This document shows, one piece after another, positions 46,792 through 64,000 of a DNA stretch of 64,000 bases. The translations under genes were made by a program, and so were the position numbers. Under the pieces are notes generated by a model. That model was not told where the DNA came from and searched no databases. It saw only the letters and a list, made by a program, of their open reading frames with translations. The DNA comes from an uncultured Nitrospina sp. (GTDB lineage: Bacteria; Nitrospinota; Nitrospinia; Nitrospinales; VA-1): NCBI GenBank assembly GCA_964344595.1, contig CAYFNV010000017.1:3660-67659 (forward strand). The letters run 5' to 3'. The stretch's first letter is position 1. Every line of letters starts with the position of its first letter.

Positions 46792-47187
46792 ATGGATAAA
46801 CCTAAAAAAGAACCTGTTACTTTAAACCAGAGTCAGGACAATAGATTGTGCCTGAACTGCGGGTTTCCCAATCGGAATACTGATACCCAATGTATGTATT
46901 GCCGAACCAGTCTGGTTGAAGATGGTGGATTGTTCAACTGGGTTCGCCAGACCTACTACGTCCTTCGCTGGCGGTGGCAACTCAAGCAAAAGCGCAATTC
47001 CCTGGAAAGCAAGCCACCCATCTACCGCTCATTCGGTTATTTTGTTCTTGGCGTGATTTTAAGCGCCGTGGGTATTTTTGTATTCACTACCGCCATGAGT
47101 CAGAACTCATTTTCCAGTGGTCTGATCGCTCTCTTGCTCATTGGTTATGGAATTGTCACCCTGAAAACCTTGTTCAGCAAAAAATGA
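46792..47187 (+). CDS. Zinc-ribbon membrane protein, hypothetical
   Basis: CLNCGFPN...CMYCRTS (CxxC...CxxC) followed by two predicted TM helices. Confidence 0.5.
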   Translation: MDKPKKEPVTLNQSQDNRLCLNCGFPNRNTDTQCMYCRTSLVEDGGLFNWVRQTYYVLRWRWQLKQKRNSLESKPPIYRSFGYFVLGVILSAVGIFVFTTAMSQNSFSSGLIALLLIGYGIVTLKTLFSKK

Positions 47188-47323
47188 AAGGCCTCTTTCT
47201 TTACAACTCCCTTTTCCCCAGGCAATCTTCTTGCCATTGCAATGACAGTTATTAGAATCATTGCCTGAAAATGTGTATCCTTATACAGTAGTAAAGGTTC
47301 TTATTCTATAAACTGAGTTCATC

Positions 47324-49804
47324 ATGCCGGATATAAAACCTGAAAATAAAGACAGCATAACCTTATCCGTCAAGGGTATGAGTTGTGCCAGTTGTTCAGC
47401 CAGGATAGAAAAAAAAGTCGGTGAGCTGGAAGGGGTGATTTCAGCTCATGTCAACTTTGCCGCTGAAGTAGCATCCATCGACTTTGATCCACAAAAAATA
47501 TCTCCAGACCAATTTCCCAATGCCATCGAAAAACTGGGGTTTGAAGTTCCCCGGCAGAGCAAGACTTATCCGGTTGAGGGAATGACATGTGCCTCCTGCG
47601 TTTCTCGTGTTGAGAAAAAAATATTGTCTTTACAAGGAGTCTATTCTGTTGATGTGAACCTTGCCTCAGAACAGGTGCTGATTGATTACATCCCAGCTTT
47701 GGTTGATTTTGATACTTTAAGGTTGGCTCTGGAAGAAGCCGGATACCGCTTGTTACCGGAAAAGTTTCAGGGGACCCTGACTGAGGTTGATGAAGGGCGT
47801 TACCATAAACAATTGGCTGATCTAAAGCTAAAACTGGTATTGAGTGGATTGACCAGTGTTTTAGTTATGTTTCTTTCGATGAAAGGTGGATCGTTTTTCA
47901 ATATTCATTTGCAAAATTTAAATATTATATTATTGATTCTGGCTACTCCGGTGCAGTTTTATGGAGGGGGACAATTTTATCGAGGCGCATTTAACGGCTT
48001 TCGTCATGGTTATGCGGATATGAATACACTTATTGCTGTGGGAACTTCAGCGGCTTATTTCTACAGTGCGTGGGTTGCTATTTTCCCGGACTGGGTAAAG
48101 TTTTCAGGGCTTGAGGTTTATTTTGACACATCGGTCATGATCATCACACTCGTATTGTTAGGACGTTGGATGGAGGCTCGAGCAAAACATAGTGCCTCAT
48201 CTGCAATCAAGAAATTAATGGGACTTCAGCCTAAAACTGCTCATGTTGAAAGAGAGGGCAGGGAAATCGAAATCAGTGTGGAAGAACTCTTGGTGGGAGA
48301 TGTGGTTCGGGTTCATCCCGGAGAAAAAGTTCCTGTTGATGGTATTTTGGTTGAAGGCCAGTCCTCCATTGATGAATCGATGCTGACCGGAGAAAGCGTT
48401 CCAGTAGAAAAGAATCCCGGAGATGAGGTGATCGGCGCGAGCCTCAATAAAACCGGGTTTTTTAAGTTTCGCGTGACCCGTATGGGTAAAGATACCGTGC
48501 TAGCACAAATCATTCAACTTGTGGAACAGGCGCAGGGATCAAAGGCACCTGTTCAAAGGCTAGCAGATAAGATTGCTGGAATTTTTGTGCCAACGGTTAT
48601 TGTTCTGGCTCTCCTGGCTATGGCATTCTGGTGGGGAGTGGGAGATTCTATTACTGCTTTGCCTGTGACACCCTTTCTTTTTGCTTTGATGATCTTTATT
48701 TCAGTCATGATTATTGCCTGCCCATGTGCTTTAGGGCTCGCTACACCTACAGCAATCATGGTTGGAACCGGTAAAGGAGCTGAGATGGGCATACTGATCA
48801 AAAGCGGTGAAGCTTTGGAGCAGGCTGAAAAACTGGATACGATTATATTTGACAAAACAGGAACTCTTACTTTTGGAAAACCGGAAGTCACTGATGTGTT
48901 GTTATCTCCCGCGTCTTCAGTGGATGCGGACCGCCTATTGGAACTTGCCGGTTCAATGGAAAAACAATCGGAACACCCTTTGGCGCAGGCTGTTGTTTTA
49001 GAGACAAAGAAACGCGGCCTGAAATTTGAAGCTGTTTCGGACTTTGAGGCGCTTCCAGGTTTTGGAGTAAAAGGAAAAGTAGGAACTAACGATGTTCTAT
49101 TGGGAAATATCAAATTAATGCAGGACCAACGAATCGACATTTCTTCCTTAAGTGGAGACTTGGAAAAACTGGCTGAGCAGGGTAAGACACCCATGATATT
49201 GAGTGTTGACGGTGTGGTCGCCGGCCTCATCACTACTTCTGACAAACTAAAACCTTATGCTAAAGAATGTGTACACCATCTCAGAAAAATGGGTATGAAG
49301 GTAATGATGGTTACTGGTGACAATCAGAAAACCGCACAAGCAGTTGCACAGCAGCTTGGTATAGATGAAGTGATCGCAGATGTTCTACCTTCGGGAAAGA
49401 GAGACGAAATCAAAAAACAGATGGCTGATGGTAGTAAGGTCGCTATGGTGGGTGATGGAATTAATGATGCCCCTGCGCTGGCTGAATCTACCGTAGGCAT
49501 TGCTTTAGGAAGTGGTACTGATGTTGCAATGGAGGCATCCGATATCACTTTGGTCACTTCAGACCTTCGCATTGTCCCTCAGGCAATAGAATTGAGTCGA
49601 CACACATTGACAAAAATCCGGCAAAATCTTTTCTGGGCATTTTTTTATAATGTGATGGGAATTCCTATTGCGGCGGGGGTCTTGTATCCTTTTTATGGAG
49701 TTCTCTTAAAACCTATATTTGCCGCTGTAGCCATGTCATTGAGCTCTGTTTCGGTAGTTGGAAATTCTCTTTTGTTAAAACGCTTTTCTCCTTCCAAACT
49801 TTAG
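47324..49804 (+). CDS. copA: Copper-translocating P1B-type ATPase with two N-terminal HMA domains
   Basis: Two GM(S/T)CASC metal-binding domains, TGES, CPC in TM6 ([12 protein letters not shown]), DKTGTLT, and GDGINDAP. Confidence 0.95.
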
Positions 49805-49813
49805 GGACAGGTT

Positions 49814-50998
49814 GTGGCCCCTGCTGAAAGTTCAAAAACGATACAGTCGCTTTGTTTTTCTATAGTGGTAGTTTTTTTCTTTTTTGGATTTGTTGAGTTG
49901 CTTCTCAGGTTATCGGGATTTGAACCTGTATTACGCTATAAATCTTATACCATTCCATCCTGGATGGAAGAGATGGACCCAGTCGTATTGGAAAAGTACC
50001 AGCAATTTGTGGATGGACAGGGTTTCGTGAATGAGGATGTTTATGCCTATAAGCCAGATTTTCGGTACGGCTATCTTCTAAAACCAGGCTTTACTACCAC
50101 GGTTCAGAATTATTCCTCTGCTTTTATGGTGGACAAGCTTCCTTCATGGACAATTATTGCTGACTCAGAAGGGTTTCGTGCTTCCCCCCGAAACAAGGCC
50201 ATAACTGAAGCTAATGGAAAAACATTGTATGTATTGGGTGACTCCAGCAGCTTCGGCTGGGGAGTGGATTACGAAAAGTCATATACATATTTATTAACAG
50301 AAAAATTAAATACCATTTCTGCTTTTAGTTTAAGTAACTTTTCACTTCCCGGCTTCTCTTCCTTTCAGGGAAAATTGCTTTGGCAGGAAATTGAAGGTGT
50401 GGAAAAGGATGATTGGGTCATCCTGTCCTATGGTTGGAACGATTCCTATCCCTCATTTCAAACTGATCAACGTCAATTTGAACTGCGAAACTCTCTGGCA
50501 GGAAAAGTTGTTTGGAAATTGAAGCAACTTTTACTTTATCGATGGATGACAACATGGGGATTGCCAAATTTTGCTCACAAAGAGAAGGAAGGCACGCGTG
50601 TTCCATTAGAGCAATACCGTGAAAACCTTGAATCATTAATCGAGGGTGTCCAACTGATGGGTGCAAAGCCCTTACTTGTCAATGTTTGTAACCCAGACTC
50701 ATATCAGAATGTGGTTGAGCAGATTGCAAAGAATAAAAAAATATCCTTTATAAACTTTCCTTCAGCATTTAAGCCCTACTTATCAACGGTTCACGACCGG
50801 TTTCCCGACTTGTTTGTTACCTATTTTGAGGCCTACGGGGAGGATATGGAAGACGACTCTATGTTGGCTTTCTTGTTTCCTGACCGTTGTCATCCTAATG
50901 AAATTGGTCATGGGCTGATGGCTGAGATAATTTTTGAAGCTCTAAAGAAGGAAATCCGCAATGCAAACGAAAATAAAATTATAAATAGCGAAAGTTAA
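49814..50998 (+). CDS. Membrane-anchored SGNH/GDSL-family hydrolase
   Basis: N-terminal TM segment, block I YVLGDSSSFGWG, block III GWND, block V DRCHPNEIGH. GTG start. Confidence 0.7.
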   Translation: MAPAESSKTIQSLCFSIVVVFFFFGFVELLLRLSGFEPVLRYKSYTIPSWMEEMDPVVLEKYQQFVDGQGFVNEDVYAYKPDFRYGYLLKPGFTTTVQNYSSAFMVDKLPSWTIIADSEGFRASPRNKAITEANGKTLYVLGDSSSFGWGVDYEKSYTYLLTEKLNTISAFSLSNFSLPGFSSFQGKLLWQEIEGVEKDDWVILSYGWNDSYPSFQTDQRQFELRNSLAGKVVWKLKQLLLYRWMTTWGLPNFAHKEKEGTRVPLEQYRENLESLIEGVQLMGAKPLLVNVCNPDSYQNVVEQIAKNKKISFINFPSAFKPYLSTVHDRFPDLFVTYFEAYGEDMEDDSMLAFLFPDRCHPNEIGHGLMAEIIFEALKKEIRNANENKIINSES

Positions 50999-54589: not shown

Positions 54590-54796
54590 ATAATTTGCCA
54601 GCCTCGCTTGAACATTGTTTGTGTTTTGGTAAGGGAATAATTATATCGTAAAAATTTTTTTTATTTGAAAGTTTATGAAAAATAACCTGTTATTGAAAAA
54701 TTCCATCAGCTATTCGCTCTTTGGTTAAGTTATTGGAACTCCGAACCGATCGGTAATAGACTTCATTAATTGCTAATACCGAGGAGAAAACGAACT

Positions 54797-55723
54797 ATGA
54801 AAAAGTCATTTACATTAGTGTTGATATTCACCGTTTCTTTAGTCTGGGGCTCAATGGTCAATGCAGAAAACACAGCCGATGAAACGGTACGTATCTCTGC
54901 AACTGACACCACTTCGGGTAAGCTAGCGGATAAACTTGCCGAAGGGTCGGGTATAAACATCGATAATCTGGTTACCGGCATCAATGAAAAGTTGACGATT
55001 TCTGCTCAGGATAAACTGTCCACCAAAGGTGACCTGTTGACCAACTCCGGGTCCGGAGATACGACATTGGCAGTTGGTACCGATGGTCAGGTGCTGGTGG
55101 TCGACTCCGCTGCCTCCAATGGAATCAAATGGGCGGACTCGCTTGACCTTTCTGCACCCGGTCCCATAGGTGGAACTACTCCTGGCACCGGCGATTTTAC
55201 AGATTTAAGTGCTCAAAATCTTATTATTAAAAATGGCTCTGAAAGAGCTAAACGAATCGCTTTTGCCATCACAGTAAGCAACAATGGGTCTTCTATTCAG
55301 CATAAGGCTAAAAGCTTGGTTGACCCTGTAAATAGTTCAGCTACTTCCTTTCCTTTTCCAAATGAAGTAACTGGTTTATCCGGGACGATTGCCAACACCC
55401 CACTAATAAATTCGTCAACCGATTTTGCTTCAGGAGTGGGTGTATTATCTTCAAACAAGAAGGAATTATATTTTGACTGGATTACTGAACAGGGAAGCTC
55501 CCAATTGAATCATATAACTGGAAAAATTCTCTATAACACTACTGGGACAACTTATTTTTTACGGCCTACATTTCGTAGTATTAACGTAAATGGTTCTGCG
55601 AAGCATAGAATTGGTCTGGTATTACAGAATCCCAGTTCTAGCACCACTTACAACTGGGATTCAGGAACAATTGGTACGAATAAAGAAATTACCTTTATAG
55701 TAGAAGGTTGGGTTAAGTTTTAA
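54797..55723 (+). CDS. Secreted phage-tail-fibre-like protein
   Basis: GAGGAG RBS at 54781 with ATG at 54797 and signal peptide MKKSFTLVLIFTVSLVWGSMVNA. Tail-fibre-type N-terminal motifs are VRISATDTTSGKLADKL, STKGDLLT...LAVGTDGQVLVVDSAASNGIKW and GPIGGTTPGTGDFTDLSA. Confidence 0.6.
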   Translation: MKKSFTLVLIFTVSLVWGSMVNAENTADETVRISATDTTSGKLADKLAEGSGINIDNLVTGINEKLTISAQDKLSTKGDLLTNSGSGDTTLAVGTDGQVLVVDSAASNGIKWADSLDLSAPGPIGGTTPGTGDFTDLSAQNLIIKNGSERAKRIAFAITVSNNGSSIQHKAKSLVDPVNSSATSFPFPNEVTGLSGTIANTPLINSSTDFASGVGVLSSNKKELYFDWITEQGSSQLNHITGKILYNTTGTTYFLRPTFRSINVNGSAKHRIGLVLQNPSSSTTYNWDSGTIGTNKEITFIVEGWVKF

Positions 55724-55848: not shown

Positions 55849-57285
55849 CTAATGGGAGGCGAGGGCGATGATTGCGTCGGGGAAGATACCTAGGTTGATG
55901 GTGCCGATCACACCGATAAAGATTACAAAAAGGGTCATGGGTGTCAGGGAAACTTTAAACTCTGCTTCCTGGTCTTTCATATACATAAAGACAATGACTT
56001 TCAGATAGTAATACAGGGAGATGGCGCTGTTGAGTACGGCGATGATAACCAGTGTGAGCAATCCTTCCTGAATTGCCGCGCTGAAGATATAAAACTTGGC
56101 AACGAATCCCGCAAATGGTGGAAGACCACCCAGCGACAGGAGAAAAATAGTCATACACAAGGATATAACGGGATGCTTGTAGGCCAGGCCTGAATAGTTT
56201 TTGATTTCCAGATTCTCTTCACCTTTTCGACCCAGAATAATGATGATACCGAAAATTCCAAAGGTCATGAAAGCATAAGCCAGCATGTAAAACAGGAGGC
56301 TTGAACTGCCGAGAGAATTTTTGGCAATGACCGCTATCAATATGTAACCTGCATGGGAAATACTGGAAAATGCCAGCATTCTTTTGATGTTGGTTTGCAT
56401 GATAGCACCCAGATTACCCACGAACATACTGAGAACGGCGATAATGCTGAGAAGCAGTTCCCAGGACGGTGACATTTCTGGAAAGGTCTCGGCAAAGACC
56501 CGGAAAAAAGCGGCAAATGCGGCGGCTTTTGGTCCTACTGCCATGAAAGCAGTGACGGGGGTTGGAGCGCCATGATAAACATCCGGAGCCCACATATGAA
56601 AGGGCACAGAGGCTACTTTGAATCCAAATCCAATCACAAGAAGTACCAGTCCCATCAAGAGTAAGGGGTTGGCCTGTGCCGATGGATGCTGTACAAAATC
56701 TGCTATTTTAAACAGGTTTGTGGAACCGGTTGAGCCATAAACCAGAGTCATTCCATACAACAGGAAACCGGTTGCAAATGCACCAAGCAGAAAATACTTA
56801 AGAGCCGCCTCGTTGGACTTATGATCTCCCCGCCTGATTCCAGCCAGTACGTAAAGGCAAATTGAGACGATTTCGATGCCCAGAAAGATCATAATCATAT
56901 CTGTCGACGATGCGAGAAGAATCATCCCCACTGTACAGAACAGGATGAGAGCATAATACTCTCCCGCACCTATGCCTTCTCGCTCGTTGTATTCTGCAGA
57001 TAAAAGAATCGCCAGTGCGGAACTAATGGTGAATATACAAATGAAGAATAACGAAAGATGATCAACAACATAGCTGTCGTTAAAGGAATAAGCTGGAATC
57101 GGATGTTTGGCAAACGCACTGATGGCTGTCATTAAAAGACCAACCAAGCTGGCGAACATCAGGAGAGATTTATTTCGTCCTCCCCAAAGGTCTACCACCA
57201 GTACCATCATTGCGAAAACACTCAGCACAAGTACAGGTGCCAGGGCAATCAGGTCAATAGATTCAGGTGCTAGAATGGGTTCCAC
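55849..57285 (-). CDS. nuoN: NADH-quinone oxidoreductase subunit N
   Basis: 478-aa polytopic antiporter-like subunit, last gene of the nuo run. Conserved FKVASVPFHMWAPDVYHGAPTPVTAF. GTG start. Confidence 0.9.
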   Translation of the reverse strand: MEPILAPESIDLIALAPVLVLSVFAMMVLVVDLWGGRNKSLLMFASLVGLLMTAISAFAKHPIPAYSFNDSYVVDHLSLFFICIFTISSALAILLSAEYNEREGIGAGEYYALILFCTVGMILLASSTDMIMIFLGIEIVSICLYVLAGIRRGDHKSNEAALKYFLLGAFATGFLLYGMTLVYGSTGSTNLFKIADFVQHPSAQANPLLLMGLVLLVIGFGFKVASVPFHMWAPDVYHGAPTPVTAFMAVGPKAAAFAAFFRVFAETFPEMSPSWELLLSIIAVLSMFVGNLGAIMQTNIKRMLAFSSISHAGYILIAVIAKNSLGSSSLLFYMLAYAFMTFGIFGIIIILGRKGEENLEIKNYSGLAYKHPVISLCMTIFLLSLGGLPPFAGFVAKFYIFSAAIQEGLLTLVIIAVLNSAISLYYYLKVIVFMYMKDQEAEFKVSLTPMTLFVIFIGVIGTINLGIFPDAIIALASH

Positions 57286-57288
57286 GGT

Positions 57289-58890
57289 TTATTCCTTAAT
57301 AAAAGCTTTTTGGGGCATTTGAAGCTTATGGTTCAAACTTGCCATTTCAGTTTGTGTAATGAGTTGAGCGTGCTCTCCATGACCACCATCATGATGTTCC
57401 TGACTGGGACGAAAATTGTCAGGGTTCACTTTTGATACCAGATGGTTTACCGAAGCATCAAATGTTTTCATGAAAGGTTTGGGATATAAACCTATCCAGA
57501 AAATCAAAACGACCAGGGGAGCGATCGTAAACATTTCCCTGGTATTCATATCTTTCAGGACTTTGTTCTCAGGATTATTCAATTCAAGAAACATGACACG
57601 CTGGAACATCCAAAGGATGTAACAGGCTGCGAGTATGACCCCCGAAGTGGCACAAGCCGCCCAAACCCCGTTGACTTGAAATATTCCAAGTAACACCAGA
57701 AACTCTCCAACAAACCCATTCATACCTGGTAACCCAATCGAAGACAGGGCCACAATCATAAAACAAATTGTGTATTTAGGCATAATTTTGGCGAGCCCGC
57801 CAAATTCTGAAATCAACCTTGTATGACGTCTGTCATAGATGATGCCTACCAAAAGGAAAAGTGCGCTGGTACTGATGCCATGGTTGATATTTTGGATCAG
57901 CGCTCCTTGGATTCCGTAGGGATTTAACGCAAATATTCCAAGCATGACGAATCCCAAATGACTAACGCTGGAATAAGCAACCAGTTTCTTTAAATCTTCC
58001 TGCACCATTGCTACCAGTGCCCCGTAAATGATGCCGATGATCGATAACCAGGCTACCATGGGAACAAACTCATAGGACGCCTGAGGGAAGAATGGCAGGT
58101 TGAAACGCAGGAAACCATAAGTTCCCATCTTCAACAAAACACCAGCCAGAATAACAGAACCAGCAGTAGGTGCTTCAACGTGTGCGTCTGGCAGCCAGGT
58201 ATGAAATGGAAACATGGGTACCTTGATAGCAAAAGCCAGAAAAAAGGCCATCCACAGCCATTTCTGAGTATCAAGTGAGACGTTAAGGTGTTCGGTTATA
58301 TAAAGAATGTCTGCGGTTCCCACACCGGTGGTCTGCTGGATATGAAAATAGATCCAGATGATGGCGACCAACATGAGTAGAGAGCCCACAGCGGTGTATA
58401 AGAAGAATTTGACGGATGCATAAATGCGACGGGGACCTCCCCAAACACCGACAATTATGTACATGGGTACCAGCTGGAATTCCCAGAACACATAAAACAT
58501 GAATAGGTCGAGGGCGATAAAAACTCCCAGCATGCCAGTTGAAAGAGCCAGCATGGCCATCATGTATTCACGGATATGTTTCTTTATATCCCAGGATGCT
58601 ATGACGCAGATCATAGTCAGGAAAGTGGTCATCACGTAAAGCAAGAGCGAAATACCATCCATACCAATGTGGTAGTTGATGCCCCAGGATTCGATCCACG
58701 GGATGTTCACCCCAAACTGCATTTTGTGTGAAGTGTTGTCGAAGTTTGTCCATAGAAATAATGACAACAGAAAATCTGCTGCCGCGATGGCAAGCGCAGT
58801 CTGTTTGATTGCGTTTTCATTTTCCTTTGGCATGAAAGCCAGGAAAATTGCCCCGAAGAAAGGCAGAAATGTGACAAAAGTTAAAAACAT
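57289..58890 (-). CDS. nuoM: NADH-quinone oxidoreductase subunit M
   Basis: 533 aa. AFAIKVPMFPFHTWLPDAHVEAPTAGSVILAGVLLKMG is the NuoM signature. Confidence 0.92.
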   Translation of the reverse strand: MFLTFVTFLPFFGAIFLAFMPKENENAIKQTALAIAAADFLLSLFLWTNFDNTSHKMQFGVNIPWIESWGINYHIGMDGISLLLYVMTTFLTMICVIASWDIKKHIREYMMAMLALSTGMLGVFIALDLFMFYVFWEFQLVPMYIIVGVWGGPRRIYASVKFFLYTAVGSLLMLVAIIWIYFHIQQTTGVGTADILYITEHLNVSLDTQKWLWMAFFLAFAIKVPMFPFHTWLPDAHVEAPTAGSVILAGVLLKMGTYGFLRFNLPFFPQASYEFVPMVAWLSIIGIIYGALVAMVQEDLKKLVAYSSVSHLGFVMLGIFALNPYGIQGALIQNINHGISTSALFLLVGIIYDRRHTRLISEFGGLAKIMPKYTICFMIVALSSIGLPGMNGFVGEFLVLLGIFQVNGVWAACATSGVILAACYILWMFQRVMFLELNNPENKVLKDMNTREMFTIAPLVVLIFWIGLYPKPFMKTFDASVNHLVSKVNPDNFRPSQEHHDGGHGEHAQLITQTEMASLNHKLQMPQKAFIKE

Positions 58891-60864
58891 TTAAAACATG
58901 ACCAGCAAAAGACTAATAAACCCGACAACAATAAATAATGCGTAATTGCGGACAAACCCTGACTGGAACACTTGTGCCTGGCGACTAAACCAGCCAATGG
59001 TATTGGCAGTGCCATTTACGGTGCCATCAATAGCTTTGGCATCGCATTCCTTCCATAAAAGCTTGGATCCTTCTACTGTGGGCTGCACGATTGATTCGTC
59101 ATAAAGTTCATCCACATAATATTTGTTTGTAACCAGATCCACTCCCCATTGACCTTCGGTAAACTTATCTGGCAAGTCGGGGCGTTTTATGTAAAACATA
59201 TAGGCGCCAAATATTCCTGTGATCGCAATTGCCAGGGAGAAGAACATTAGCATCAGTTCGATCCACCACTCGTGTTCAGCAGGCTCCAACAAATGCGTCC
59301 AGGAAGGAGCATGGCGTCCTACTTCATGAAGCAAGTGTTCAGAGTGTTCCAATGCATGAGCGAGATCAAAATGAAGGACTGGTTCCAACCAGCTGTGTAA
59401 AATATGGATATGCCACCAATGGTGGAATGGTATTCCCAATAAACCTCCAACAGTTGCAAGCCCGGCCAAAATAACAAGAGGCATGGTCATTACTTTTGGG
59501 GACTCATGGGGGTGGACAGAAGGATCGACACGGGATTCTCCATGGAATGTCATGAAGACCAGTCTGAACATATAAAAAGCGGTCAACAACGCTGCAGAAA
59601 TTCCCATCCCCCAAAATATAATATTGCCATCCAATAAAGAGTGGTAGAGCACCTCATCCTTACTAAAGAAACCTGATAAGGGAAAAATTCCGGCTATCGC
59701 TAGAGTTGATACCAGGAATGTCCAGTAAGTGACAGGCATGTGGCTTTTAAGTCCACCCATTTTACGCATGTCCTGTTCGCCATGGATTCCATGAATGACG
59801 CTGCCGGAACCCAGAAAGAGACATGCTTTAAAGAAAGCGTGGGTCACAAGATGGAAAATGGCAGCAGTGTATGCACCAACACCGCAAGCGAGGAACATAT
59901 AACCTATCTGACTGACAGTAGAGTATGCCAGAACACGTTTGATATCGAATTGGGTCATTCCTATAGTTGCCGCCATCACCGCGGTGCCACCTCCTATAAA
60001 CGCTACAACGGTCATGGTTAGAGGTGATAAATTAAATAGCGCGTTGCAGCGGACGACCATATAGACACCAGCCGTTACCATTGTGGCTGCGTGGATCAAT
60101 GCACTAACAGGTGTCGGACCTTCCATAGCGTCTGGAAGCCAAGTGTAGAGTGGAATCTGCGCTGATTTACCTGTTGCACCGACAAAAAGCAACAATGTGA
60201 TAATGGTCACTATTTCTCCGCCATAGATAAGTTTTTCCGGAGCCATATGCATGACATCGGAGAAATCAATAGTGCCGAAAATATTAAAGATGTACATGAC
60301 CGCCAATAGAAAGGCAAAGTCACCCACTCGGTTTACAATGAAGGCTTTTGTGCCTGCGTCACATGCTGATTTTTTCTCGAAGTAATACCCAATGAGAAAA
60401 TAGGAACAACAACCAACCCCCTCCCAGCCAATGAACATGAGCAAGAAGTTATTGCCCATAACAAGAAGGAGCATGGCAGAAGCAAACAGGTTGAAGTAAG
60501 CAAAGAACCGGTAGTAGCTGAACTCCTCATGCATGTAACCAATGGCATAGACATGGATGATGAAGCCAACACCAGTAACAACAAACATCATAACCAGTGT
60601 TAGAGGGTCGATCTGGAAACCAAAATCAACATTGAAATTACCAGCTCCGAACCAGGTCCATACAACCTGCTCGTAAATATGTTGCCCCTCTGGTAACAGC
60701 AGGTAGCCGATATAAATAAGGATGGAGGTAAGAAAGGAAAGGGCCATACTGCCACAAGCCACAAGCCCTACAGCATTCTTGCCAATTTTCAGTCCAAAAA
60801 ATCCATTGATGATGGATCCGATCAACGGAAAAAGAGGAACCAGACAGGTTAATTTTAGCAACAT
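58891..60864 (-). CDS. nuoL: NADH-quinone oxidoreductase subunit L
   Basis: 657 aa. GWEGVGCCSYFLIGYY, GKSAQIPLYTWLPDAMEGPTPVSALIHAATMV, and a long C-terminal extension consistent with the lateral helix. Confidence 0.92.
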   Translation of the reverse strand: MLLKLTCLVPLFPLIGSIINGFFGLKIGKNAVGLVACGSMALSFLTSILIYIGYLLLPEGQHIYEQVVWTWFGAGNFNVDFGFQIDPLTLVMMFVVTGVGFIIHVYAIGYMHEEFSYYRFFAYFNLFASAMLLLVMGNNFLLMFIGWEGVGCCSYFLIGYYFEKKSACDAGTKAFIVNRVGDFAFLLAVMYIFNIFGTIDFSDVMHMAPEKLIYGGEIVTIITLLLFVGATGKSAQIPLYTWLPDAMEGPTPVSALIHAATMVTAGVYMVVRCNALFNLSPLTMTVVAFIGGGTAVMAATIGMTQFDIKRVLAYSTVSQIGYMFLACGVGAYTAAIFHLVTHAFFKACLFLGSGSVIHGIHGEQDMRKMGGLKSHMPVTYWTFLVSTLAIAGIFPLSGFFSKDEVLYHSLLDGNIIFWGMGISAALLTAFYMFRLVFMTFHGESRVDPSVHPHESPKVMTMPLVILAGLATVGGLLGIPFHHWWHIHILHSWLEPVLHFDLAHALEHSEHLLHEVGRHAPSWTHLLEPAEHEWWIELMLMFFSLAIAITGIFGAYMFYIKRPDLPDKFTEGQWGVDLVTNKYYVDELYDESIVQPTVEGSKLLWKECDAKAIDGTVNGTANTIGWFSRQAQVFQSGFVRNYALFIVVGFISLLLVMF

Positions 60865-60871
60865 ACTTTTT

Positions 60872-61186
60872 CTACCACTTTAACAGGTTAAACTCATCCA
60901 GGTTGACAGTCGGTTTATTCCGATGCAAGGCAATGATAATAGCCAGCCCAACCGAAACTTCGGCAGCGGCCACACACATCACCATAAAACTAAAGATTTG
61001 TCCGCTTGAAAGATTCATAAAATGATCAAACGCGATCAGCGAAATATTCACTGCGTTCAGCATAATCTCAATGGACATGAACACAACGATGACGTTCCTT
61101 CGAATGAGGACGCCAACGATTCCGATCACGAACAAGGTCGCGCTCAACATCAAGTAATGAGATAAGGGAACAGTATCTTCAAGCAT
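60872..61186 (-). CDS. nuoK: NADH-quinone oxidoreductase subunit K
   Basis: 104 aa, three TM helices. [11 protein letters not shown] and [13 protein letters not shown] signatures. Confidence 0.9.
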
Positions 61187-61189
61187 GAG

Positions 61190-61699
61190 TCAGTCCAATT
61201 TGGTTTTAGCCAGAACAACCGCCCCGACCATTGCTGCAAGTAAAAGTATTGATGCCACCTCAAAAGGCAACACGAAATCCGTAAACAAGGTTTCACCAAC
61301 TTCTGCTACCGTGCCAAAACTATCTGGAAGGATAGCTGGTGTACCCATTTTTGTGCCTAGAATAATATCCGAAATTTTATATATAATCCCTACAGCAAGC
61401 AGTCCGGTTAAAACCGAGAGCAGTAAATTTTGTTCTCTTGCTATCCAGCCTTTGTCATCACCCTTTTTCAAGTTCAAGAGCATGATCACAAACATAAAAA
61501 GAACCATAATGGCTCCGGCATAAATGATAATTTGCAAAATGGCGATGAAGTGTGCCTGTTGCAAAACAAATATTCCTGCAAGGCCCAGCATCATTCCAAT
61601 TAATGATATGGCTGAACCTACCGGACTGTTGTTAAAAACAACGCCCAAGGCAAGTATCACGCAGAGTCCAGCCAGTGGATAAAAAATCAGTAGTTCCAT
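61190..61699 (-). CDS. nuoJ: NADH-quinone oxidoreductase subunit J
   Basis: 169 aa. FIAILQIIIYAGAIMVLFMFVIMLL, with position between nuoI and nuoK. Confidence 0.88.
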   Translation of the reverse strand: MELLIFYPLAGLCVILALGVVFNNSPVGSAISLIGMMLGLAGIFVLQQAHFIAILQIIIYAGAIMVLFMFVIMLLNLKKGDDKGWIAREQNLLLSVLTGLLAVGIIYKISDIILGTKMGTPAILPDSFGTVAEVGETLFTDFVLPFEVASILLLAAMVGAVVLAKTKLD

Positions 61700-62256
61700 T
61701 TTGCGTACATATTTCGGGTGAATTCAATCCGCTTTTGTAAATCAGCGACTGGTGTCAAAAGCTGCTCCTTGGTATAAAGCATCTTCTTTCTGTCCAGCAT
61801 GGATATTTCGCAATCATCACTCATAAAAATGGCTTCTTCAGGACAAGCCTCTTCGCAATTTCCACAAAAAATGCAGATTGCGTAATCAATGTTGAACACA
61901 TCCGGCCATCTTTCATACTGGTTTTGCTTGCCGGTGTTTTGTCCGGGTTCAATGTGTATGCAATAAGCAGGGCAGGCGATTTCGCACAGCCCGCACGCAA
62001 CACAAGCAGGATGCCCGTCTTCATTCTGGGCCAGAACCGGCCTTCCTCTGTAAGCAACCGGATACTCAACCTGTTCTTCCGGGTAGTAAACTGTCATGAT
62101 CCTTCTATCTTTTTCCGTGCCAAGGAAAAAAGGAATGAACCCAAACAGGTTATGAAAAAAACGTCGGGAAGTGAGCCACATCCCCTTTAATATTTCCGGG
62201 ATATAAGACTTCTCCCACCATGTCATTTCTGGTCTTCTATTTACATAATAAGCCAT
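61687..62256 (-). CDS. nuoI: NADH-quinone oxidoreductase subunit I (2x[4Fe-4S] ferredoxin)
   Basis: CVACGLCEIACP and CIFCGNCEEACP cluster motifs. 189 aa. Confidence 0.92.
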   Translation of the reverse strand: MAYYVNRRPEMTWWEKSYIPEILKGMWLTSRRFFHNLFGFIPFFLGTEKDRRIMTVYYPEEQVEYPVAYRGRPVLAQNEDGHPACVACGLCEIACPAYCIHIEPGQNTGKQNQYERWPDVFNIDYAICIFCGNCEEACPEEAIFMSDDCEISMLDRKKMLYTKEQLLTPVADLQKRIEFTRNMYAKWNY

Positions 62257-62269
62257 GAGCGTACTCCTT

Positions 62270-63346
62270 TTAATTCAGCGCCAGGATAACAAGCCCGGTA
62301 ACAAGAATATTCGCCAAGGATAAGGGAAGAAGAATCTTCCAGCCCAGCTTCATGATTTGATCATAACGGAATCGGGGAAGTGTCCACCGAATTATCATTT
62401 GCAAATAAATGAAAAATACCACCTTGGCAAAAAACACGCCTACATGAATTAACATTACGACAAGGTTTGACCCTGTAGTGCCAAGAAAGTCAAACCAGGA
62501 AAGCAATGTGGCAGTTGTTAAAAAGGGGATATGCCACGCTCCTAAAAATAAAATGGTCATGATCGCACCGATCGTGACCATCTCAACAAATTCGGCCATG
62601 AAAAACATTCCGAATTTGAGTCCACTATATTCTGTGAAATATCCTGCAACCAACTCCGATTCTGCCTCCGGGGCATCGAAGGGGATACGTTTGTTCTCAG
62701 CAATGGATGCTGTCAAGAACATGAAAAAACCAACAGGCTGGAGAAAAATTCCCCACCTCCAGAAATCTTCCTGAATTGCACCAATTTCAGTCAACTTCAT
62801 CGAACCATAAACCATCAGAACTCCAATGATGGTTAAACCCATAGTGACTTCATAGGAAATCATCTGAGATGCTGTTCGCATGGAACCTAAAAGAGACCAG
62901 TTATTGTTAGAGCTCCAGCCGGCGATTACATATCCGTAAGTTGCTAATGATGCAATTGCAAATACGAATAAAAGTCCGACATCAAGATCAGAAATTACCA
63001 AATTTATTTTTGTATCAAACAGTGTGTATTGTCCGCCGAAAGGTACAACCGCAAATGTCAGGAGGGCAGGGACCAGAGCTATAATTGGGCTGATAGTATG
63101 AAGAACCTTGTTGGCACCCTCAGGAATAAAATCTTCCTTGGTAAACATCTTCAACGCATCTGCAATGATGTGAAACAGACCCAGTACCGTAAAGCCCATT
63201 ATGTCTGCACGGTTTGCTCCAATACGATCCTGCATGAGCGCACTCTGCTTTCGTTCCACCCAAGTCAATACCGGAGCAAAAAAGCCAACGGTGACCGCGA
63301 AGACAAATAAGATTTTAATCAGCGTTATGATTAAGTCGACCCACAT
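62270..63346 (-). CDS. nuoH: NADH-quinone oxidoreductase subunit H
   Basis: 358 aa. VERKQSALMQDRIG.NR, ADALKMFTKEDF, and the EAESELVAGYFTEYSG signature. Confidence 0.92.
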   Translation of the reverse strand: MWVDLIITLIKILFVFAVTVGFFAPVLTWVERKQSALMQDRIGANRADIMGFTVLGLFHIIADALKMFTKEDFIPEGANKVLHTISPIIALVPALLTFAVVPFGGQYTLFDTKINLVISDLDVGLLFVFAIASLATYGYVIAGWSSNNNWSLLGSMRTASQMISYEVTMGLTIIGVLMVYGSMKLTEIGAIQEDFWRWGIFLQPVGFFMFLTASIAENKRIPFDAPEAESELVAGYFTEYSGLKFGMFFMAEFVEMVTIGAIMTILFLGAWHIPFLTTATLLSWFDFLGTTGSNLVVMLIHVGVFFAKVVFFIYLQMIIRWTLPRFRYDQIMKLGWKILLPLSLANILVTGLVILALN

Positions 63347-63355
63347 GGTCTTTCC

Positions 63356-63841
63356 TTAATTCAGCGGCCCTATCAGAGGCTGCCTTTTGTTGACAGGATA
63401 ATCTTTGCGTAAAGGATGTCCTTTAAACTCTTCGTAAAGCAGAATCCGCCTTAAATTTGGATGATTGCGAAATTTGATGCCATACATGTCCCAGATTTCA
63501 CGCTCATACCAATTTGCTGTTTTCCAGAGAGGAGTTACCGAGTCAGTAATACAATCCTCCGCAGATACAGGAATTTTTACTCTTAAACGATGGTTATATT
63601 TTAAGGAGTAGAAATGATAAACCACCTCAAATCGCTCATCCTTTTTAGAGAGATAGTCTACCGCAGTAATGTCCATCAAAAAATTGAACGCTAATTCCGG
63701 ATCATCACGCAGGAACTTGAAGAACTCATTACCACAATCTTTTTTTACAGTGACTGTCTGGTCATCACGGAAGCTGTGGCTGTCGATCACGGAAGAACCG
63801 TAATGCTCTTTAATGCGTTCAATAATTTTTTCTTCAGGCAT
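63356..63841 (-). CDS. nuoC: NADH-quinone oxidoreductase subunit C (30-kDa subunit)
   Basis: 161 aa. FLMDITAVDY, FEVVYHFYS, WYEREIWDMYGIKFRNHPNLRRIL. It is not fused to a NuoD domain. Confidence 0.9.
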   Translation of the reverse strand: MPEEKIIERIKEHYGSSVIDSHSFRDDQTVTVKKDCGNEFFKFLRDDPELAFNFLMDITAVDYLSKKDERFEVVYHFYSLKYNHRLRVKIPVSAEDCITDSVTPLWKTANWYEREIWDMYGIKFRNHPNLRRILLYEEFKGHPLRKDYPVNKRQPLIGPLN

Positions 63842-63889
63842 CGTTTTTAATAATTAATAGTGTGACCAAAAAAGCTGGTCTTTTAATTC

Positions 63890-64000
63890 TTATTCCCAGT
63901 CGAGTCCGCCACGTTTCCAGACATATAAAAGTCCAATGCCGAGAATTAAAATAAACAGCAGCATTTCTATGAAGCCAAACATACCTAATCGTTTAAACAG
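63890..64000 (-). CDS. nuoA: NADH-quinone oxidoreductase subunit A, C-terminal end (rest lies outside the window)
   Basis: Manual minus-strand translation gives ...LFKRLGMFGFIEMLLFILILGIGLLYVWKRGGLDWE*, matching the NuoA/Nqo7 C-terminus (YxWkkGaLeW). The stop is at 63890-63892. Confidence 0.75.
   Translation of the reverse strand: MFKRLGMFGFIEMLLFILILGIGLLYVWKRGGLDWE

Follow-up and report, generated by a model that had tools for sequence, protein, structure and literature searches.

The nuo cluster on the minus strand at the end of the DNA stretch that we analyzed (64,000 nucleotides, hereafter the window) is very probably the membrane-arm operon of NUO-2, a second complex I that takes its partner subunits from other loci, in an uncultured, nitrite-oxidizing marine bacterium of the Nitrospinaceae (phylum Nitrospinota, class Nitrospinia). 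The cluster encodes the whole proton-pumping membrane arm (NuoA, H, J, K, L, M, and N), together with the peripheral subunits NuoC and NuoI. This split nuo arrangement is already known: it was published in 2013 for Nitrospina gracilis 3/211, where NUO-2 consists of nuoACHIJKLMN, nuoEGD, and the solitary genes nuoB2 and nuoF2 (Lücker et al. 2013, PMC3578206), and a comparison of 2024 extended the second nuo gene set to the class Nitrospinia (PMC10839748).

According to both the list of open reading frames and the sequence, the gene order is nuoA-nuoC-nuoH-I-J-K-L-M-N, all on the minus strand, with nuoA truncated at the window end. Only the C-terminal 36 codons and the stop of nuoA lie in the window (63890–64000); they were identified by translation, by tblastn with Escherichia coli NuoA, and by the PF00507 match of the full gene, which is found on the same contig (L001, 9596–9952) and codes for 118 aa. 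A 48-nt spacer (63842–63889) precedes nuoC (63356–63841, 161 aa, PF00329, E = 1e-48), encoding the 30-kDa subunit unfused to NuoD, and a 9-nt spacer (63347–63355) precedes nuoH (62270–63346, 358 aa, PF00146, E = 5e-109). The next gene, nuoI (61687–62256, 189 aa), encodes the ferredoxin-type subunit with two [4Fe-4S] clusters, recognized by Fer4 families, and its translation contains two CxxCxxCxxxCP motifs and is 46% identical to E. coli NuoI. It is followed by nuoJ (61190–61699, PF00499), which encodes 169 aa if the first ATG is the start, or 156 aa with the later start chosen by one gene caller (L001). The remaining genes are nuoK (60872–61186, 104 aa, PF00420), nuoL (58891–60864, 657 aa including a C-terminal extension domain, PF00662, PF00361, and PF01010), nuoM (57289–58890, 533 aa, PF00361, 40% identity to E. 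coli NuoM), and the cluster's final gene, nuoN (55849–57285, 478 aa, GTG start, PF00361, 34% identity to E. coli NuoN). Pfam matched all seven membrane subunits of the complex I membrane arm, PF00361 being matched by three proteins of the cluster (NuoL, NuoM, and NuoN).

These coordinates and the lengths of the two spacers are exactly those of the original prediction, which had concluded that no nuoB lies between nuoA and nuoC and none of nuoD to nuoG between nuoC and nuoH. As a nuoB gene needs ~470–590 nt, none can fit in the A-C spacer, and the 9 nt between nuoC and nuoH are far too few for nuoD, E, F, or G. A tblastn search with E. coli NuoA to NuoN agreed with the sequence: neither the 64-kb window nor the 10 kb preceding nuoA gave a match to nuoB, D, E, F, or G. 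The further claim that NuoC is a stand-alone protein and not a C-D fusion was borne out by the sequence and by the PF00329 match. Upstream of nuoA, the same contig carries a complete rRNA operon (16S-tRNA-tRNA-23S-5S). The idea that nuoB and nuoD had only been rearranged to just past the window edge is thus refuted, the 10 kb upstream being taken by this operon and containing no nuo genes.

Three plus-strand open reading frames elsewhere in the window had been guessed to be nuo genes and were rejected. The presumed nuoE (46792–47187, 131 aa) gave a weak DUF7139 match below the Pfam cut-off, while the presumed nuoG (47324–49804, 826 aa) and nuoD (49814–50998, 394 aa) are, by Pfam, a copper-type P-type ATPase and a GDSL lipase, respectively.

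To place the cluster among its relatives, we compared it with homologous loci from other genomes. The closest NuoC homologues (70–89% identity) carry the names Nitrospinaceae, Nitrospina, or Nitrospinales. The order A-C-H-I-J-K-L-M-N was present in all 66 Nitrospinota loci retrieved, which come from independent assemblies and include single-cell genomes and chromosome-level MAGs of 2.3–3.4 Mb, and nuoB, D, E, F, and G were absent near every one of them (flanks of up to 10 kb on each side, where the contig extends). Across these loci, the A-C gap ranges from −4 to 387 nt (median 55) and the C-H gap from 5 to 34 nt, and the NuoC orthologues are uniformly 160–164 aa long (61–90% identity). More distant loci (NuoC identity of 59–64%) have nuoD in line, and mostly nuoB and nuoEFG as well.

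Because the window is part of a short-read metagenome contig, an assembly or binning artefact could be imagined, in which nuoB and nuoD to nuoG were deleted or collapsed at both junctions. However, the contig sequence was recovered identically in three assemblies of two runs, the isolate genome of N. gracilis has the identical published order (PMC3578206), and the same A-C-H junctions occur in all 66 loci, which means that they are not an assembly deletion. The probability of an artefact is therefore negligible: the A-C-H arrangement is real and due neither to chance nor to assembly. Nor does the cluster look like the decaying, functionless remnant of a broken operon, for which the loss of nuoB and nuoD could have been the first step. 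The eight ORFs are intact and closely spaced, dN/dS is 0.01–0.08 for all eight genes, and NuoH is 81–97% identical across the class Nitrospinia. Moreover, all 20 pump or channel positions checked in NuoL, M, N, K, H, and J of the window are conserved. In the E. coli numbering of the mutagenesis literature, NuoL retains the pump residues E148, D182, K233, K402, and D403; NuoM retains E137, K223, K254, and E396; NuoN retains E138, K223, K253, and K397; NuoK retains the equivalents of E36 and E72; and the E-channel glutamates of NuoH are conserved. We consider decay extremely improbable.

The first of the possibilities raised by the original prediction, that NuoB and NuoD are supplied from another locus, is supported by the relatives of the window. 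There, NuoB is encoded by a solitary gene (195 aa, 82% identity to the nearest in-line NuoB), and NuoD by nuoE-nuoG-nuoD clusters (184, 877, and 396 aa, respectively) found in 18 places, with ~70% identity to the nearest in-line NuoD. Two assemblies contain a trans locus together with an A-C-H cluster: one single-cell assembly holds both a solitary nuoB (L097, AQTY01000026) and an A-C-H cluster (L042, AQTY01000007), and one MAG holds both a nuoG-D locus (L098, PCWF01000141) and an A-C-H cluster (L051, PCWF01000030). Two further clusters encoding this second NuoD (NuoD2), from samples other than the window's, are again of the nuo(E)-G-D type. An in-line operon of the L071/L072 type was the nearest in-line relative of NUO-2 for subunits A, B, C, D, H, I, J, and K. 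Some records of this operon type carry a Nitrospinota label.

Complex I and membrane-bound hydrogenases share a common ancestry and no B or D gene is present in cis, so the membrane arm might instead be paired with a module foreign to complex I, for example, one in which a group 4 [NiFe] hydrogenase provides a small and a large subunit in place of NuoB and NuoD; a hydrogenase-related module had also been among the possibilities raised by the original prediction. This is very unlikely. The proteins encoded in trans are dedicated paralogues of NuoB and NuoD of the ordinary kind, and their nearest in-line operon is also the one closest to NuoC, H, I, J, and K of the window; the NuoB retains the cysteines of cluster N2, and the NuoD retains the HPxxHG and YTDR motifs, including the quinone-site histidine and tyrosine. 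In the alignment, NuoD2 shows only one cysteine at each of the sites, N-terminal and C-terminal, where a hydrogenase would have a CxxC nickel-iron motif, so that, lacking the two CxxC motifs, it does not class with the group 4 membrane-bound [NiFe] hydrogenases (Ech, Mbh, or Hyf), and no hydrogenase-like genes were found in the examined flanks of the nuo cluster. The system is not an 11-subunit complex I either, since homologues of nuoE and nuoG are linked to nuoD2 in the relatives. According to the literature, these genomes also contain a separate NUO-1 with an in-line B/D pair, and a cluster without its own nuoB and nuoD might borrow these two subunits from the canonical NUO-1 or represent a spare membrane arm. 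Yet the same lineages have, at other sites, a conserved solitary nuoB and conserved nuoE-G-D loci, and the NuoB and NuoD encoded there have the same closest in-line relative as NuoC, H, I, J, and K of the cluster, which fits a single former operon that was later dispersed. Borrowing or a spare arm thus appears improbable, if somewhat less so than a hydrogenase-type module.

Under the favored reading of the region as the membrane-arm operon of NUO-2, NuoB, with cluster N2, and NuoD would form the quinone-reduction site and would be supplied in this genome, as in its relatives, by a solitary nuoB and a nuoE-nuoG-nuoD cluster. The products of these trans genes, and of the separate nuoF2 described in the literature, would assemble on the membrane arm encoded in the window. 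The published NuoF2 is reported to lack an FMN site and to have extra Fe-S clusters, and NuoG2 to have an extra [4Fe-4S] cluster (PMC3578206). In the relatives, the NuoG2 of 877 aa contains an additional Fer4_7 domain and a molybdopterin domain, and it resembles the alpha subunits of formate dehydrogenases more than NuoG, though the catalytic Cys-His has been lost. NuoE2 and NuoG2 share only 30–33% identity with the E and G proteins of the nearest in-line operons. This divergence, set against the common L071/L072-type relative of NuoA to NuoD and NuoH to NuoK, may reflect an exchange of modules. One possible, though rather doubtful, scenario from these comparisons is that the broken operon is the footprint of an exchanged electron-input module, whereby the Nitrospinia, starting from a canonical ancestral operon, would have dropped nuoE-F-G, gained a formate dehydrogenase-derived E-G pair beside nuoD, and scattered nuoB. 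If true, this would be a case of a complex I acquiring a new low-potential partner, by an evolutionary route that is not spelled out in published accounts.

Nitrospinota are the main known nitrite oxidizers of the ocean water column. Their route of CO2 fixation is the reductive TCA cycle, for which reduced ferredoxin is required. As nitrite is a very poor donor of electrons, ferredoxin production in these cells is a bioenergetic question, and NUO-2 is the leading candidate for ferredoxin reduction in the Nitrospinota. In the published hypothesis, the proton-motive force drives reverse electron flow through NUO-2 from quinol to ferredoxin as the low-potential acceptor (PMC3578206), and the reduced ferredoxin would then feed the ferredoxin-dependent steps of the cycle; this role is speculative. 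The scientific value lies in the biochemistry of NUO-2 and not in the gene order, for which the window adds one further member and confirms the arrangement throughout the 66 sampled Nitrospinota genomes.

The NUO-2 of N. gracilis shares with the window the gene order nuoACHIJKLMN, the phylum, and the family, and with the window's relatives the nuoEGD cluster, the solitary nuoB, and a NuoG2 with extra Fe-S domains. The window differs in belonging to another, uncultured marine species (NuoC ~72% identical to that of L055, the only cultured-looking Nitrospina record retrieved) and in having an rRNA operon directly upstream of nuoA. The canonical in-line operon of 14 genes, nuoA to nuoN, found in E. 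coli and Thermus thermophilus and represented most closely by L071, L072, and L081, encodes homologous subunits and shares all catalytic and pump residues, but nuoB, D, E, F, and G have been taken out of the window's operon. The subunits of the window are 34–47% identical to those of E. coli over most of their length, NuoC being 34% identical to the C part of the NuoCD fusion, and identities to the nearest in-line operons reach 71–72% for NuoH, 63% for NuoC, 82% for NuoB2, and 70% for NuoD2.

A NUO-2-like operon is also described for Ca. Kuenenia stuttgartiensis, where NuoG and NuoF are said to carry the same additional Fe-S clusters and the FMN site is likewise said to be missing (as cited in PMC3578206). 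There, a single operon holds all the genes, unlike the dispersed NUO-2 of Nitrospina, and the occurrence of the same NuoG and NuoF traits in a single operon supports the view that these subunits form one enzyme. We also considered the Brocadiia operon L080 as a Kuenenia-like counterpart: its NuoH is only 49% identical, its NuoF is of ordinary length (417 aa), and its NuoG is short (534 aa), so that it is probably a different complex from the one cited by Lücker.

Scattered genes are also known for the NDH-1 of cyanobacteria and chloroplasts, with loci such as ndhC-K-J and ndhA-I-G-E and with ndhH on its own. Homologues of NuoE, F, or G are not known from NDH-1, which contains subunits specific to oxygenic phototrophs, whereas E2, G2, and F2 are retained in Nitrospina. 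The use of ferredoxin instead of NADH by NDH-1 nevertheless parallels the role proposed for NUO-2, with the difference that NUO-2 is proposed to run in reverse.

The minus-strand nuoA-C-H-I-J-K-L-M-N cluster (55849-64000) is very probably NUO-2, the second complex I gene set described for Nitrospina gracilis, with NuoB and NuoD supplied in trans. The window edge cuts nuoA, leaving its last 36 codons (stop at 63890), followed by nuoC (63841 to 63356, 161 aa), nuoH (start at 63346) and the tightly packed nuoI, J, K, L, M and N, down to 55849. The predicted A-C-H coordinates were reproduced exactly by the ORF calls, the nucleotide sequence and the translated window edge, with spacers of 48 nt between nuoA and nuoC and 9 nt between nuoC and nuoH. 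Each product matches its expected complex I family in Pfam; NuoC, predicted to be a stand-alone protein and not a C-D fusion, indeed matches PF00329 alone, with no NuoD domain. With the thirteen Nuo proteins of E. coli K-12 (locus L004) as tblastn queries, A, C, H, I, J, K, L, M and N were matched, and no match for B, D, E, F or G was found in the whole 64-kb window. Three ORFs at 46792-50998, candidates by size for nuoE-G-D, were rejected by Pfam: one has only a weak DUF7139 match below the cut-off, and the others encode a P-type ATPase and a GDSL lipase. The nuoN end is followed after about 125 nt by a 317-aa ORF on the plus strand (54770-55723), opposite to the cluster; its N terminus is hydrophobic and signal-like, and Pfam gives no match.

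The cluster is not a decaying remnant. Its eight complete ORFs are all intact and closely spaced. Charged proton-pump residues are conserved at 20 of 20 canonical positions in NuoL, M, N, K, H and J (E. coli numbering of the mutagenesis studies), and NuoI retains both CxxCxxCxxxCP motifs. Every gene is under purifying selection, with dN/dS of 0.01-0.08 against four orthologous loci at a dS near saturation.

Among the top 120 NuoC matches, which are 70-89% identical, those that carry a name belong to Nitrospinaceae, Nitrospina, Nitrospinae, Ca. Nitrohelix and Ca. Nitromaritima. Across GTDB, sampled at one genome per species, 80 loci were recovered and their genes labelled by tblastn. All 66 with a NuoC identity of at least 61%, which belong to Nitrospinota except for a few MAGs labelled Nitrospirae, keep the A-C-H-I-J-K-L-M-N order as far as the contig extends, and none carries B, D, E, F or G within the fetched flank of up to 10 kb on each side. 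The A-C gap ranges from -4 to 387 nt (median 55) and the C-H gap from 5 to 34 nt (median 12). Since the same A-C-H junctions occur in single-cell genomes and in chromosome-level MAGs (2.3-3.4 Mb) among these 66, the assembly deletion that the original prediction had allowed for is excluded. In the other 14 loci (59-64% NuoC identity), from Brocadiia, Planctomycetes, Omnitrophota and further groups, nuoD is in line, mostly together with nuoB and nuoE-F-G. MAGs labelled Binatia, Deltaproteobacteria and Syntrophobacteraceae show the order nuoA-C-D-E-F-G-H-J-K-L-M (L079 9421-20266, L083 5827-16668, also L078 and L084); here C directly follows A, J directly follows H, and nuoB and nuoI are not in line, so that both quinone-module Fe-S subunits are apparently encoded elsewhere.

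Where NuoB and NuoD come from had been left between another locus, a hydrogenase-like module and a rearrangement just beyond the window edge. The last is refuted by the window's own contig (L001), as the 10 kb upstream of nuoA contain no nuo gene by tblastn and hold instead, just past window position 64000 and on the same strand, a complete 16S-tRNA-tRNA-23S-5S operon (L001 3977-9211); 385 nt separate the end of its 5S gene from the nuoA start codon. This contig, an ENA metagenome contig of 135.8 kb that contains the window, encodes the exact window NuoC, which occurs in two Logan assemblies as well. The rRNA operon-nuoA synteny is kept in six of seven chromosome-level Nitrospinales loci; an rRNA operon precedes nuoA in L001, L010, L011, L018, L020, L038, L039 and ten short contigs. 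This neighbor accounts for the many MAG contigs, roughly half of the 66, that break off 0.3-1.5 kb upstream of nuoC; among 13 such contigs scanned, nine start inside the 23S 3′ end and ten have the 5S gene. A promoter-like site (TTGACA-17-TACTAT) lies at L001 9396-9424, and a small globin-like gene followed by a gene for a 308-aa Protoglobin and PsiE protein precedes the rRNA operon (L001 2087-3504).

Supply from another locus, in turn, was borne out in relatives. When the NuoD of L072, a related in-line operon, was used as query, dozens of 396-aa proteins with ~70% identity ranked below a few close relatives; they are named Nitrospina, Nitrospinaceae or Nitrospinales. Five of these NuoD clusters led to 18 genomic places; in all 18, nuoD lies immediately 3′ of an 877-aa nuoG, preceded by nuoE (184-207 aa) wherever the contig is long enough, with no further nuo genes nearby. 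Most are flanked on the upstream side by P-II and ammonium-transporter genes and on the downstream side by tatA and an LPG_synthase_TM gene. The L072 NuoB retrieved a large set of 195-aa proteins (82% identity), encoded by a solitary nuoB with unrelated genes on either side in the contexts looked up. Solitary NuoB2 (L093-L097) carries an N-terminal extension of ~18-25 residues, absent from in-line homologues of 157-170 aa. Two assemblies hold both parts: Ca. Nitromaritima SCGC AAA288-L16 has a solitary nuoB (L097, AQTY01000026) and the A-C-H-I-J-K-L-M-N cluster (L042, AQTY01000007), and a Nitrospinae MAG has nuoG-D (L098, PCWF01000141) and A-C-H... (L051, PCWF01000030). We infer the same partner loci in the window's own genome, ~74 kb of which was read. 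The trans NuoB keeps all four cluster N2 cysteines (the tandem CC, C127 and the CPP cysteine), and the trans NuoD retains its quinone-binding His and Tyr within intact HPxxHG and YTDR motifs and has only single cysteines at the sites of the CxxC pairs of [NiFe] hydrogenase large subunits; a hydrogenase-like module is therefore not supported.

The in-line operons closest to the window cluster are L071, L072 and L081 (NuoH 71-72%, NuoI 56-57%, NuoJ 51-54%, NuoK 63% and NuoC 61-64% identity). In L071 (18310-19449) and L072 (16476-17966, a 496-aa ORF), the antiporter-like subunit after nuoK is just 28-29% identical to the 657-aa window NuoL, so the distal and proximal parts of the membrane arm differ in history; a divergent nuoE/nuoF-like pair lies upstream on the opposite strand. 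B2, D2 and the window C, H, I, J and K share this nearest operon type, whereas NuoE2 and NuoG2 do not, being only 30-33% identical to its E and G. The best structure matches of an 877-aa NuoG2 from a Nitrospina relative (L085 7274-9907) are YjgC and NAD-dependent formate dehydrogenase alpha subunits (E=1e-108 to 1e-101), against only 1e-64 for complex I NuoG among solved structures. The catalytic Cys-His of Rhodobacter FdsA is replaced by Arg-Ala in the alignment, so NuoG2 would not be an active formate dehydrogenase; it looks like a formate-dehydrogenase-derived, inactive molybdopterin domain. The split in affinities suggests that the operon may have been broken as a formate-dehydrogenase-derived module took the place of its NADH-input module, a plausible, unproven step that leaves the NUO-2 assignment unchanged.

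The dispersed and window-encoded products would assemble as one enzyme, which might act as a quinol:ferredoxin oxidoreductase driven by the proton-motive force; this ferredoxin-reducing role is a published hypothesis, much less certain than the NUO-2 assignment. In N. gracilis, which has a canonical NUO-1 besides NUO-2, the force is proposed to push quinol electrons uphill to ferredoxin, for use in the reductive TCA cycle. Its NUO-2 genes form the clusters nuoACHIJKLMN and nuoEGD, with nuoB2 and nuoF2 each standing alone; NuoF2 has additional Fe-S clusters but no FMN site, and NuoG2 has one additional [4Fe-4S] cluster (Lücker et al. 2013, PMC3578206). The literal string nuoACHIJKLMN was found by literature text search in that paper only, and a 2024 comparison reports NUO-1 plus this second nuo gene set in genomes of class Nitrospinia and no second set in most other Nitrospinota classes (PMC10839748). 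The window locus is thus a further member of an arrangement already described for Nitrospina. A similar complex of Ca. Kuenenia is encoded by one operon (PMC3578206).
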